Origin: a virus
Direction: 5' to 3' (one strand)
Virus genome (UHGV): UHGV-1779514
DNA: 10,895 nucleotides
Shown here one piece after another: positions 1,912 to 10,895 of this stretch (position 1 is the stretch's first letter; the number at the start of each line of letters is the position of its first letter). A program made the position numbers and the translations under genes. Below the pieces are notes generated by a model. The model worked only from the letters and a program-made list of their open reading frames with translations, had not been told where the DNA came from and ran no database searches.

Positions 1912-2675
1912 TGGTTGCCTCCTTTGCGAAGCTGGGCAGCAAAGTCAACTAACCACTCAGTCATTTCAACCTTCCCTACCAGATCTGAACCAGGGTGCAT
2001 ACAGCAATCACTCTGCGCCGCTTTGAAAGCCTTATACTCATATTCTTGGGCCACCAGATTTTTTGCAGCTTCTATAGCAGCATCCAATCCCTGCGCCCGC
2101 ACTTCAGCCAGGCATTTGCGAAACTCGGAAACGTACTGTTCGACGCTCATTCCCCAGCTAAGTGGACATTCATTGAATGTTTCGCCTTCGTGCTCTTCAT
2201 CAGGTAGCTCTTTGGTAAAGAACTCACGCTCAATGGCGTGGAGTGTGTCAGCAAAACGACGTAAGTTACTCAAACCTACCGTAATGGAGAATTCAGGAGC
2301 ATCACATCCGACGCCCATCTGCTGATAAACGGCGGTTTTGAAGGCCTTAAGCCCCGCATTTTCCGCCACCAGCGCCGCGAGATTAGTCTCAAGCTCTGCA
2401 ATTCGACACATAGCATCAATATTTGTGTCCTCCAGGCACTTAATTTCACCAAGCAGCTCCAGTGCAACCTTTGGGTTGAACGCGGCAACATGACGAGCGT
2501 TGTTCTCTGCATTTTTCTGTCCATCAAAGCCGGTCCATTTGATAACGTCTTCACATCGTTCATCACCGGGCGTGTGCACCGCATAAGTACCAGTATCCGT
2601 CGAAATAAATGCGACCCATTCGTCTGGTGTTGCCTTTTCTGCCGCCTCACGCAGTACCTGATAGTCAATTGTCAT
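1908..2675 (-). CDS. Ead/Ea22-like phage protein, ~255 aa
   Basis: Track ORF 1908..2684. I prefer the ATG at 2675..2673: it overlaps the upstream gene's TGA (ATGA), has GAAGG 9 nt upstream, and gives an N-terminus (MTIDYQVLREAAEKA) that aligns with the downstream paralog. Confidence 0.6.
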   Translation of the reverse strand: MTIDYQVLREAAEKATPDEWVAFISTDTGTYAVHTPGDERCEDVIKWTGFDGQKNAENNARHVAAFNPKVALELLGEIKCLEDTNIDAMCRIAELETNLAALVAENAGLKAFKTAVYQQMGVGCDAPEFSITVGLSNLRRFADTLHAIEREFFTKELPDEEHEGETFNECPLSWGMSVEQYVSEFRKCLAEVRAQGLDAAIEAAKNLVAQEYEYKAFKAAQSDCCMHPGSDLVGKVEMTEWLVDFAAQLRKGGNQ

Positions 2676-3298
2676 TCTCGCCATCCTTCACAGTTGTAAT
2701 CACTACAGCCTTCAAAATCATATGGGCTGTACTGCCAGGTTATTTTTCCGCAATGCGGACAATTCCAACGCACCTTCCCGCTTCGCGACTTCTTTCTTCT
2801 GTTTTGCTTTTTCAACCAGTCAGGCATGACCAAACCTGCGCCCTGAACCATTGTTCTGCGGTTAAAATTATTGATATTGAACGTCCGCCGCTTTGCTGCA
2901 TCGGCAATGGAAAATGGCAACCAAACTATTCCTGGTTCGTTTTTGTTGGCGACGCTAAAGATGGTTGCTTTACTGAAGTCATCGGTTGGCAATCCACCGT
3001 GTTGAAGCCAGTAAACATCGTTGCCGTTCCAGCTACCTTTTTTGTAGGCCACATACGCAGTGCAATCTGACTCAATCAGGCTTTCTGTAGGGATGTACTG
3101 GCAATCAACGTGCCACACAGCCATTGCATCCACACTATCGGCACAAACAGGCTGATCGATATCTCGCCCACAATTCCAGGCTTTTTGGGCTTCTTCCAGC
3201 GTGTAAACATGAGCGCGATCGATATCAGAACTGTAACCATTGCCGTTATGGCAATGGAATGAGGCGTTATTACCCACAGTTTCACGCAAACACATCAT
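2672..3298 (-). CDS. hypothetical Cys/His-rich phage protein, ~208 aa, with C-terminal CPHC...C..C zinc-ribbon-like motif
   Basis: Track ORF 2672..3352 begins with GTG and would overlap the upstream gene by 40 nt. ATG-ATG at 3298..3293 lies 14 nt after the upstream stop and is the more likely start. No family recognised. Confidence 0.5.
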   Translation of the reverse strand: MMCLRETVGNNASFHCHNGNGYSSDIDRAHVYTLEEAQKAWNCGRDIDQPVCADSVDAMAVWHVDCQYIPTESLIESDCTAYVAYKKGSWNGNDVYWLQHGGLPTDDFSKATIFSVANKNEPGIVWLPFSIADAAKRRTFNINNFNRRTMVQGAGLVMPDWLKKQNRRKKSRSGKVRWNCPHCGKITWQYSPYDFEGCSDYNCEGWRE

Positions 3299-3312
3299 GT
3301 AAAAACGGTTGC

Positions 3313-3552
3313 TCACTGGATGCCTCCTTGGTGGAGTTGCGCTGCGATGCACGAAAAAAAAGACTCCCGAGTATGACTGTTAAGAGCTGGTGCGAACGCC
3401 TCGTTAAGAACGGCGGCATCACAGCCGTCATCAATATAGAGCGCAATTTTTTTCTCCAGGCGCGCTTTGGCTTCCTGCAACTGCATACCCCGGCACGCAC
3501 GCGGGATATAATCAGCAATTTGAGCGATAGCTTTTTCGTTCTGTTTAAACAT
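3313..3552 (-). CDS. hypothetical phage protein, 79 aa
   Basis: ORF track entry. ATG at 3552..3550 preceded by GAGGTG (4-nt spacer). Overlaps the upstream ORF's 3' end by 8 nt. Confidence 0.5.
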   Translation of the reverse strand: MFKQNEKAIAQIADYIPRACRGMQLQEAKARLEKKIALYIDDGCDAAVLNEAFAPALNSHTRESFFSCIAAQLHQGGIQ

Positions 3553-8273: not shown

Positions 8274-8896
8274 GTATTCTTCAGCCATTCTTTAAGAGTC
8301 ATCTGCGGAATACCTCCCATTTTCCCGCATGAAACAACGTCAATCTGTTCACGCGCAGACTGGAATAACAAAGGCAGGTGACTTAGATTTTTTGGCGTGC
8401 CGCCGGAGTGAACGCGTAGTTCTTGCGTAGCGTCAACGCCCACCAGAGCTACATGTTTGAATCCGATATGGAAAGCCAGGTTCAGAGCACCATATGCACT
8501 ATTGCCGCTGGCAATTTCATTCTCATCTTCGCAAAGGCCGAAATGTGCGGACCAGCGCCACGCCCACCACTCGGGAGAATTCGTATTTTTTGGCTCCATG
8601 CCGCGTTCAGCCACACGACGGAAGCACAGAACGCCATCTCTGACTTCACGTTCTTTAACATCGGGTAGTGCCATGCAATAACAAACACCACGGCGACGGC
8701 GGCCACGACCAACGCGCCGCATATTGTCTGGGGATGGATCAAGGGTGAAAAAATAAGAAGCGCGGTTAAGCCAGTCGATGGCCCCATTGACCGCTATAAT
8801 CGGCACTCCGCGCGGCGCAACAAAGTTTGCGGCGCTTGGGCCACTGCCGACGATAATAACGCGATCACTGCCTCTAAATTTATTCTTGGGAAACAT
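8270..8896 (-). CDS. GT42/DUF115-like (Cst-II / Maf-like) putative nonulosonate-type glycosyltransferase, paralog B, 208 aa
   Basis: ORF track entry. N-terminal VIIVGSGPS...IIAVN, then [25 protein letters not shown] and a following HSGG. Paralogous to 8794..9456. ATG at 8896..8894 with AGGAG ~12 nt upstream. Family call from memory. Confidence 0.45.
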
Positions 8897-9456
8897 TGAA
8901 TTGCACTGCTCCTACTTGCATTCAAAATATGTAAATCTGCGTGTTTTTTGCGGGTATCCAGGAACTGCTGTTGCCATTTTGAAATAGACACCTGCGTTGG
9001 ATTCCGTAGTGCTTGAGGGTGCGCGCCATGCCAATGAAGGCCGTTTTGCAGAGAACAGTCATAGCCGACTAATACCACTACTTCAGCCCCTGATTCAGCA
9101 GCCAGACTGATAGCCTGCGCGCCGCTATTTACCCCTTCCGCCGGTCCACAATATCGCCTGTACTCCAACGAAAATGATTTCGCCGCCGCCAGGTTGGCTG
9201 TCACTTTGCGGAATCTCCCTCCCGGTATGGTGGATCCGTATTGCTTCCACCATGACAAATCACCGGCGTATAAGGCATAAATGTCATCGAACATCTGCCA
9301 GGAATTGTTAACCGCGATGATTGAACAGCCAGTTTTTTCTATAGCAGCACAGTCCTCACGAGTGAGTGACGGACCGCTACCGACACAAAAAACAGTCCTA
9401 GTCGCCCTGGGTGGTATGTTCATTCTCAGCTGCAAATTCAGCCTCCAGGCGAGCAT
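8794..9456 (-). CDS. GT42/DUF115-like (Cst-II / Maf-like) putative glycosyltransferase, paralog A, 220 aa
   Basis: ORF track entry. VFCVGSGPS...IIAVN, then NSGAQAISLAAESGAEVVVLVGYD and HWHGAH. Start could be the ATG at 9456 or at 9423; neither has a strong Shine-Dalgarno. 3' end overlaps paralog B by 103 nt in another frame. Confidence 0.45.
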   Translation of the reverse strand: MLAWRLNLQLRMNIPPRATRTVFCVGSGPSLTREDCAAIEKTGCSIIAVNNSWQMFDDIYALYAGDLSWWKQYGSTIPGGRFRKVTANLAAAKSFSLEYRRYCGPAEGVNSGAQAISLAAESGAEVVVLVGYDCSLQNGLHWHGAHPQALRNPTQVSISKWQQQFLDTRKKHADLHILNASRSSAIQCFPRINLEAVIALLSSAVAQAPQTLLRRAECRL

Positions 9457-9514
9457 TCATTTCAGCGATTACAGGGTCCACTACAGCATCTGTTTCCTGT
9501 TCATTACGCGGCAT
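9398..9514 (-). CDS. possible small acidic ORF, 38 aa from the internal ATG (MPRNEQETDAVVDPVIAEMNARLEAEFAAENEHTTQGD)
   Basis: Track ORF 9398..9586 starts at GTG with no Shine-Dalgarno; the ATG at 9514 also lacks one. Overlaps the start of paralog A. Weak call. Confidence 0.2.
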   Translation of the reverse strand: MPRNEQETDAVVDPVIAEMNARLEAEFAAENEHTTQGD

Positions 9515-9619
9515 GACCGATGCCAGCGACTCATAATTAACCTTGGATGACACGATTATTCTCCCGATGTTAAAGTGCACTACCACAAAGAGCGCACATG
9601 CACTAATTAATTTATTATT

Positions 9620-9952
9620 TTAAGCGGCATGCAACCACTTATCGCCGTTCAATACATGCTCAATAGCCTCACCCTTTTTAAGACTTATGTATTCCAGGAT
9701 GGCGGTAATCGCTTGTTCTGCACCATACGCAAGAACAACGTAGTAGCCTTCCTCTCTAAGCCTGCGCATCCAGGCGATCTGCTCTTTCGTCGGGGCTTTA
9801 CCATTTGGTTCTTTAAGCTCAATTCGCATGCCGTGATAAATACCGCATGCTTTATCGAGACTCATGTCCGGATAACCTTTTTTCTGCCCTTCAGCCTTCA
9901 TTTTCCCGGCGGTTGCTTTTGAACGCTTCCCTCCGTTAGGCGTTGCATGCAA
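9620..9952 (-). CDS. VRR-NUC domain (PD-(D/E)xK) nuclease, C-terminal portion; gene appears frame-disrupted at its 5' end
   Basis: Track ORF starts at TTG. GYPDMSL ... IELKEP ... KEQIAWMRRLREEGYYVV matches the VRR-NUC pattern (G.PD, ExK, Q..W...L...G). The same frame stays open upstream to ~10132 with no start codon, encoding CEHFEQVFIFDYFERKHPDIYEL. Confidence 0.6.
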   Translation of the reverse strand: MHATPNGGKRSKATAGKMKAEGQKKGYPDMSLDKACGIYHGMRIELKEPNGKAPTKEQIAWMRRLREEGYYVVLAYGAEQAITAILEYISLKKGEAIEHVLNGDKWLHAA

Positions 9953-10187
9953 CAGCTCATAGATGTCAGGGTGCTTGCGTTCGAAGTAATCAAAAATGAA
10001 AACCTGCTCGAAGTGCTCGCAATTTCCGTCGCGCAGGTCTGGGTTCTTTGCCAGTGCTGCAAGTGCCTTCGCATGTGGAGAAACTTCTTTTACCGGCGCA
10101 AGCGATTTTTGGTTTTTGGCCTGGACCGCCCCTTATTTCGACGCTCACTAAAAGCCTGAAACTCTTCCTCAGTAAAGCGCAACATAA

Positions 10188-10433
10188 TCAGTCAAATCCT
10201 GCCGGTCGCATGCCATATTTACGCTGTTTTGCGGCCTGCTCTTCCCTGTGCCATTGCGCACATTCAGCGTCACAATAAATGCCTGATTCAATCGATTCAT
10301 TGCAGTAACGACACTTCCCTGTAAATACCTGGCTCACGACCTGTGCCTGCTTTCTGATGTTATCGATGGCCATGTCTTTGAGAGCTTCTAACTGATTCAT
10401 GCTCAGCTCTGCATCATCAACACGTTCTGCCAA
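10188..10433 (-). CDS. TraR/DksA-family-like C4 zinc-finger protein, 81 aa
   Basis: ORF track entry. IDNIRKQ ... CRYCNESIESGIYCDAEC ... KQRK resembles TraR as I recall it (INRIRQKI ... CEAC ... CVEC ... RQRK). TTG start with GAGGAA ~6 nt upstream. My base count near 10380 disagrees by 1 nt with the track frame, so the start is +/-1. Confidence 0.5.
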   Translation of the reverse strand: MAERVDDAELSMNQLEALKDMAIDNIRKQAQVVSQVFTGKCRYCNESIESGIYCDAECAQWHREEQAAKQRKYGMRPAGFD

Positions 10434-10696: not shown

Positions 10697-10895
10697 ATGT
10701 GTGAATCGAACGACAAGAATCTGACGATTTATTACGTTCTTCCCGATGAGCAATATCGCCCGGATTTGCTGGCTTACCGTATGTGGGGCATAGCAGAGCT
10801 ACGCTGGGTTGTGACGCTCGCCGCCGGGCTTGAGGATGAGTCTCAGGGTATGACTGTTGGCAAAAAATTAAAACTCCCACCTGCCACATGGATCC
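10697..10895 (+). CDS. partial CDS, 3' end beyond window; LysM-like / phage tail protein X-like N-terminus (MCESNDKNLTIYYVLPDEQYRPDLLAYRMWGIAELRWVVTLAAGLEDESQGMTVGKKLKLPP)
   Basis: AAAGAGGTG lies 6 nt before the ATG at 10697. Frame is open to the window end with E. coli-like codon choice. An in-frame ATG at 10580 has no Shine-Dalgarno and rarer codons. Resemblance to P2 gpX is from memory and weak. Confidence 0.3.
   Translation, partial: MCESNDKNLTIYYVLPDEQYRPDLLAYRMWGIAELRWVVTLAAGLEDESQGMTVGKKLKLPPATWI

Follow-up and report, generated by a model that had tools for sequence, protein, structure and literature searches.

A private 13-nt deletion splits pmgM, a VRR-NUC nuclease gene of P1-type phage-plasmids, into two reading frames in the virus genome UHGV-1779514: a probable recent pseudogene

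The window analysed here, a stretch of 10,895 nucleotides from the virus genome UHGV-1779514, carries a gene for a predicted VRR-NUC nuclease whose coding potential is divided between two reading frames of the minus strand, and the locus raises the question of what the split represents. A first-pass annotation, made from the letters and their open reading frames (ORFs), had described the gene as frame-disrupted, with its conserved N-terminal part in the adjacent frame, and had offered three causes, i.e. a frameshift pseudogene, a homopolymer sequencing error and translational recoding. We have compared the locus with its relatives in plasmids, phages and metagenomes, and conclude, with a probability of about 0.8, that it is a genuine pseudogene, produced by a private 13-nt frameshift deletion in the known and dispensable P1 gene pmgM. 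The coordinates of the features are collected in Table 1.

The layout of the two frames is as the first-pass annotation had given it. An ATG at 10185, two bases after the stop of the zinc-finger gene, starts a 31-codon ORF (MLRFTEEEFQAFSERRNKGRSRPKTKNRLRR) that ends with the TAA at 10092-10090. The VRR-NUC frame, which is the -1 frame relative to this ORF, is open from about 10132 down to its stop at 9620-9622, and the two overlap by 43 nt (10132-10090). It holds neither ATG nor GTG ahead of the TTG at 9952, the first ATG, GTG or TTG in this frame; the codons CTG (10054, 10036 and 9955), ATT (9997) and ATC (9964) are all that precede it, and the nearest ATG past the stop of the 31-codon ORF, at 10074, is in the wrong frame. 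The two homopolymers that had been pointed out are also present, as T5 on the plus strand at 10106-10110 and 10113-10117 and hence as A5 on the coding strand, the first of which reads CC-A AAA A-CC in the frame of the 31-codon ORF. With no ATG or GTG available, and with the first TTG lying past the helix that bears Glu61, an expressible ORF spanning the whole VRR-NUC domain is absent from the window. The two pieces belong to a single protein of 192 aa, WP_000943607.1, whose residues 1-26 and 32-192 tblastn places at 10185-10108 and 10105-9623, respectively, each with 100% identity. Since both are identical to one protein, a chance arrangement of ORFs does not account for the split.

Table 1. 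Features of the pmgM locus in the window (positions are those of the whole stretch)
Feature	Position	Strand	Description
pmgL, 81 aa, DksA-like zinc finger	10188..10433	-	Intact; upstream of pmgM in the same operon; PHROG 54, E=1.6e-12
5' remnant of pmgM	10090..10185	-	ATG, authentic codons 1-26, 5 out-of-frame codons (NRLRR), TAA; from translation and tblastn
Two A5 runs, CCAAAAACCAAAAA	10106..10117	-	Directly 5' of the deletion junction; lengths as in intact genes
Deletion junction	10105..10106	-	GGATCCATTCTTA, equivalently AGGATCCATTCTT, missing between these bases; from pairwise alignment and blastn difference list
3' remnant of pmgM	9620..10105	-	Codons 32-192 and stop; whole VRR-NUC core; without usable start codon
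Glu61 codon	10016..10018	-	First acidic residue of the E-PD-ExK site; helix alpha1; upstream of TTG 9952
TTG, Leu83 codon of the intact gene	9950..9952	-	First residue of beta1; upstream sequence ACCCTGACATCTATGAGCTG
Rest of the active site	9779..9871	-	Pro110-Asp111 at 9866-9871; Glu127-Leu-Lys129 at 9812-9820; Gln140 at 9779-9781

The disrupted gene is pmgM of a P1-type (IncY / pO111-type) phage-plasmid. When the 691 nt around the split were used as a megablast query, 575 E. coli records matched at 90-98% identity, nearly all of them plasmids of ~90-100 kb, which annotate the gene as a VRR-NUC / PDDEXK nuclease. The phages P1, P7, SJ46, RCS47 and others match the region as well, and there the gene is named pmgM and the zinc-finger gene pmgL. 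A single continuous ORF, which the first-pass annotation had proposed to look for in orthologues, was found: intact pmgM forms one ORF of 579 nt / 192 aa both in P1 and on plasmids of E. coli, and it is intact as one 192-codon ORF in about 900 records from E. coli, Salmonella and Klebsiella. In IMG/VR, 55 of 56 pmgM copies are intact at 192 aa and the remaining one has a nonsense codon, the cluster of the intact protein counts 1663 members, and the intact protein is on record on at least 1000 contigs.

Comparison with these intact genes locates the lesion to the nucleotide. The full-length matches of the 691-nt query are all 704 nt long, except for one phage record with 703 nt, and the alignment of the window with plasmid p886Rt_IncY contains, in 704 columns, one mismatch and a single 13-nt gap. 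The lost block is pmgM nt 81-93, GGATCCATTCTTA, in the context ...CCAAAAACCAAAAA(GGATCCATTCTTA)TCGCTTG..., where the brackets enclose the bases that are missing from the window, and it comprises the last base of codon 27 together with codons 28-31. The frame shifts after codon 26, codons 32-192 fall into the -1 frame, and a premature stop follows after 31 codons. The deleted block lies directly 3' of the second A5 run, and both runs are A5 in the window as well as in the intact genes. Thus, of the earlier description, the disruption of the VRR-NUC gene and the displacement of its N-terminal part to the adjacent frame stand, whereas the suspected homopolymer lesion does not, its place being taken by the 13-nt deletion; an error in homopolymer length can be dismissed, since both runs are unchanged and the 13-nt block is the sole lesion. 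The opposite polarity, an insertion in the relatives, was ruled out too: in orthologues at 70-77% identity, D-[PA]-F-L is still encoded where the window has the deletion, and since these diverged genes retain the residues, the 13 nt are ancestral and the window is derived. There is only 1 nt of microhomology at the junction and no flanking direct repeat, so repeat slippage leaves the deletion unexplained. Among the three causes originally offered, it is the frameshift pseudogene that this deletion and the continuous orthologues support.

The deletion is private to the window among the collections searched. When an 81-nt query across the junction was used, all the 455 matching E. coli records aligned over 94 nt at 86.2% identity (81/94), and the deleted junction was absent from them; likewise, all the 456 matching PLSDB plasmids aligned over 94 nt at 86.2%, with none in a higher identity band, and none of 18 phage records had the deleted junction. 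Exact searches for a 35-mer spanning the junction found nothing in the GTDB representative genomes, in IMG/VR or in JGI metagenomes, while the matching 48-mer of the intact gene was found in 93 contigs of IMG/VR. When the 31-aa product and the 110-aa product, the latter being the ORF from TTG 9952, were looked up as exact sequences, neither was on record. As both halves of the gene are still 100% identical to the intact protein, the lesion is evolutionarily very young, or else it is not biological.

All the genes tested around pmgM are undamaged. Against its closest relative, plasmid pMTY13773_p0111, the window aligns over 8553 nt with 11 mismatches (99.7% identity), and the 13-nt gap is the sole indel. 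Searches with the proteins of the relatives (tblastn) showed that pmgL, N, O, P, ppp, Q, R, S and pap are intact and 100% identical; for pmgL, the gene so named in the P1 annotation, this identity is to the orthologue in pMTY13773_p0111. The window comprises the P1 accessory region 26'-pmgL-pmgM-pmgN-pmgO-pmgP-ppp-pmgQ-pmgR-pmgS-pap and, beyond it, a patchwork of accessory genes of lambdoid type. The P1 record labels pmgL with 'putative morphogenetic function' only; its product matches the DksA-like family PHROG 54 and, weakly, a treble-clef family of Pfam. The 220-aa product of pmgO (8794-9456, minus strand) is 100% identical to P1 PmgO, and the gene overlaps the 3' end of pmgN (9398-9586) as in P1; the RefSeq annotations of the closest plasmids have no CDS for pmgO in this interval. 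From position 1 to about 3850, downstream of pap on the minus strand, the window is not P1-like and is made up of lambdoid-prophage accessory genes, including Ead/Ea22-like, DUF551-type and small hypothetical genes that are common to P7/pO111-type plasmids and Stx prophages. One of the proteins encoded in the window, of 214 aa (2672-3316), occurs in 1352 collection blocks, mostly in chromosomal lambdoid prophages.

To judge what the deletion would do to the product, we have examined the fold of the intact orthologue, for which an AlphaFold model was obtained with a pLDDT of 79.8 (core above 88). In the model, a short helix at the N-terminus is followed by a basic, disordered linker (residues 18-36) and a confident core at about residues 41-180, with helix alpha1 at 60-75 and strand beta1 at 83-85, and the deletion falls inside the linker. 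The best six Foldseek matches are all chains of PDB entry 4QBL (psNUC), with a probability of 1.00 and target-normalised TM-scores of 0.72-0.75; the first of them scores 0.74 at 30% identity. The same entry is matched by sequence with E=3.5e-17 over PmgM residues 77-180, and the PHROG families matched by PmgM include one annotated as 'Holliday junction resolvase'. The Pfam family VRR_NUC (PF08774) is matched by the intact protein with 21.3 bits and by the 3' remnant with 21.6, in both cases below the gathering cut-off of 23.8 and over profile positions 55-115 of 116; many homologues carry a precomputed PF08774 match, and among the NCBIfam profiles no match for PmgM was found. When 22 homologues with identities as low as 36% were aligned, Q65, H84, T86-G90, P110, D111, E127, K129 and Q140 proved invariant and E61 and H62 nearly so. 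It has been reported that psNUC has an E-PD-ExK site with a conserved Gln and acts as a dimeric Holliday-junction resolvase (PMC4103454). By homology, PmgM is predicted to be a dimeric, Mg2+-dependent, junction-specific nuclease, in which the dimeric state and the junction- or structure-specific activity are extrapolated from psNUC, stNUC and saNUC (PMC4103454).

On this basis the allele of the window would be inactivated as follows. The deletion of nt 81-93 within the linker would shift the frame after codon 26, and ribosomes starting at the ATG at 10185 would terminate at the TAA at 10092-10090 after 31 codons. The complete catalytic core would lie downstream in the -1 frame, where there is no ATG or GTG and the sole TTG is at beta1, past the Glu61 helix. 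Because translation is expected to stop so early and the frame of the core offers no better start, the pmgM of the window is most likely a null allele. A lesion of this kind would be tolerated, since pmgM is not needed for P1 lytic growth: in a CRISPRi knock-down of P1 pmgM the efficiency of plating (EOP) was 0.38 and the gene was scored as non-essential (PMC10695390), and a deletion survey, as cited there (ref. 73 in PMC10695390), likewise has pmgM as non-essential.

Other broken alleles of pmgM point in the same direction. Gene callers have annotated C-terminal PmgM pieces of 93 aa and 81 aa on 62 and 67 contigs, respectively, and eight public E. coli contigs that we fetched, with pmgM at about 1204-1782 of each, contain eight different inactivating lesions. 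Three are nonsense changes (nt 130, 217 and 278), four delete a single nucleotide (nt 60, 80, 200 and 273) and one inserts GA at nt 293. The deletion at nt 80 (SRR27214109) is a slip from A5 to A4 that adjoins the position of the junction in the window. Further irregular forms were observed as well. The truncated allele P0015/P0104 is another broken pmgM; in phage vB_EcoM-673R5 (ON470615.2) the gene is apparently disrupted, with a 703-nt match, a split annotation and an 81-aa product; and in phage phi456 (OR339795.1) an insertion sequence (InsB) stands next to a partial PmgM, so that the gene appears to be disrupted there too. Some relatives in Logan assemblies lack the pmgM stop and encode a 266-aa PmgM-PmgN read-through fusion (the region corresponding to 9398-9622 of the window). 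Taken together, pmgM is maintained overall but is sporadically and recurrently lost.

Two readings would rescue a functional product from the split gene. One is translational recoding, which the first-pass annotation had raised; here it would be a -1 ribosomal frameshift within the 43-nt overlap, yielding a functional fusion of the 31-codon ORF with the VRR-NUC frame. The geometry would suit such an event: the VRR-NUC frame is the -1 frame, tRNA-Lys re-pairs perfectly after a -1 slip at CC-A AAA A-CC (10117-10113), and the only change from PmgM in the 188-aa slip product would be in the linker, which is disordered and poorly conserved, so that a -1 P-site slip at this run could give traces of a near-normal protein. 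However, the 31-codon ORF contains no X XXY YYZ heptamer, as had been noted before; the 83 nt downstream form no stable structure (MFE -19.6 kcal/mol against a shuffle mean of -18.9, z = -0.24); and Rfam has no matching family at E<=1. Moreover, the two-frame arrangement occurs in none of the about 900 relatives, all of which have one continuous ORF, so the split cannot be an evolved feature. Slippage above the background level is thus unsupported, and we set recoding aside as very improbable. Even more doubtful is that a truncated nuclease of 110 aa started at TTG 9952, or a product of one of the non-canonical CTG codons upstream of it, still works. It is true that the 110-aa ORF retains D111, E127-x-K129 and Q140 and scores 22.4 bits against Pfam VRR_NUC (gathering cut-off 23.8), and that C-terminal pieces of similar kind are annotated in other broken alleles, yet the product would lack alpha1 with E61, H62 and Q65, and E61 belongs to the E-PD-ExK site that binds the metal (PMC4103454). 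No Shine-Dalgarno sequence is evident in the ACCCTGACATCTATGAGCTG upstream of the TTG, and the ATG closest to the stop of the stub is out of frame. The homologues argue against it as well: none was found that starts at the TTG, where the first-pass annotation had considered that orthologues with the same short N-terminus might begin, and the shortest (118-124 aa) begin ~20 residues upstream, at alpha1. The short form was rejected on this alignment together with the AlphaFold model.

The other two readings concern the origin of the deletion, and both turn on BamHI sites. The relatives carry GGATCC at three places in the stretch corresponding to the window. The window ends exactly at one of these sites (10890-10895), through which the relatives read; the deletion begins at the first G of the second, so that a BamHI site was lost with the segment; and the third, at 9232-9237, is intact in the window. 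This coincidence may be due to chance, to a scar of cutting and rejoining, or to BamHI-based cloning. It is unlikely, though worth weighing, that the deletion arose in cloning, sequencing or assembly, for instance from a BamHI clone rejoined imprecisely or from a mis-assembled or trimmed junction, and that the real gene is intact. That the left edge of the deletion and the last six bases of the window both fall on GGATCC hints at handling in vitro, and it would fit that the deleted allele is found nowhere else in the collections searched and that the two halves of the gene show no further decay. On the other hand, a loss of 13 nt beside intact homopolymers is atypical of base-calling errors, and the other 8.5 kb are without an indel against a relative that is 99.7% identical; the site at 9232 is untouched, and no site lies at the opposite end of the window. 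Had two BamHI subclones been joined, GGATCC would have been retained rather than removed, and in public assemblies genuine pmgM lesions of independent origin are frequent. A still less probable origin is a double-strand cut at GGATCC that was end-joined with 1 nt of microhomology and left the deletion as its scar; if it were true, and if a GGATCC-specific restriction system were present in the cell, a phage-plasmid would have lost a restriction target by cutting and rejoining at the cost of a dispensable gene. The coincidence with BamHI sites makes it advisable to check where the sequence came from. We hold to a genuine pseudogene as the preferred reading, under which the deletion read in the database record would be present in the source DNA as well.

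Under the pseudogene reading, the appropriate annotation of the locus is a pmgM pseudogene (13-nt deletion), and neither a short VRR-NUC protein nor a candidate for recoding. It would add one more natural null allele in support of the dispensability of pmgM for the maintenance and propagation of P1-type phage-plasmids, and, as the private deletion removes a BamHI site, it could serve as a lineage marker that can be scored by PCR and BamHI digestion. As an ordinary recent pseudogene, the locus would be of little significance beyond correct annotation.

Several known systems place the locus in perspective. The programmed -1 site of E. coli dnaX consists of the slippery sequence A AAA AAG with an upstream Shine-Dalgarno-like element and a downstream hairpin. 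The window shares with sites of this type two overlapping frames in a -1 relation and an A-run in the overlap; unlike them, it has no heptamer, stimulatory structure or conservation, its overlap having been created by a one-off deletion. With psNUC, the stand-alone VRR-NUC protein of Psychrobacter (PDB 4QBL; Pennell et al. 2014, PMC4103454), the coding potential of pmgM has in common the E-PD-ExK residues and the Gln. In contrast to psNUC, PmgM has an extra N-terminal region of about 55 residues, comprising helices and the disordered basic linker, and from the allele in the window PmgM would most likely not be made. The other broken alleles in public assemblies carry inactivating lesions that arose independently in this dispensable gene, and none of them has the 13-nt deletion of the window, which is larger and removes a BamHI site. 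Finally, pmgM of phage P1 itself (AAQ14056.1, 192 aa) is about 97% identical to the window in DNA sequence, and P1 and the P1-type plasmids of E. coli have the same operon order, pmgL-pmgM-pmgN-pmgO-pmgP-ppp, as the window; but where P1 pmgM and WP_000943607.1 are continuous, the loss of nt 81-93 has left the window with a 31-codon stub and a start-less remainder of 161 codons.
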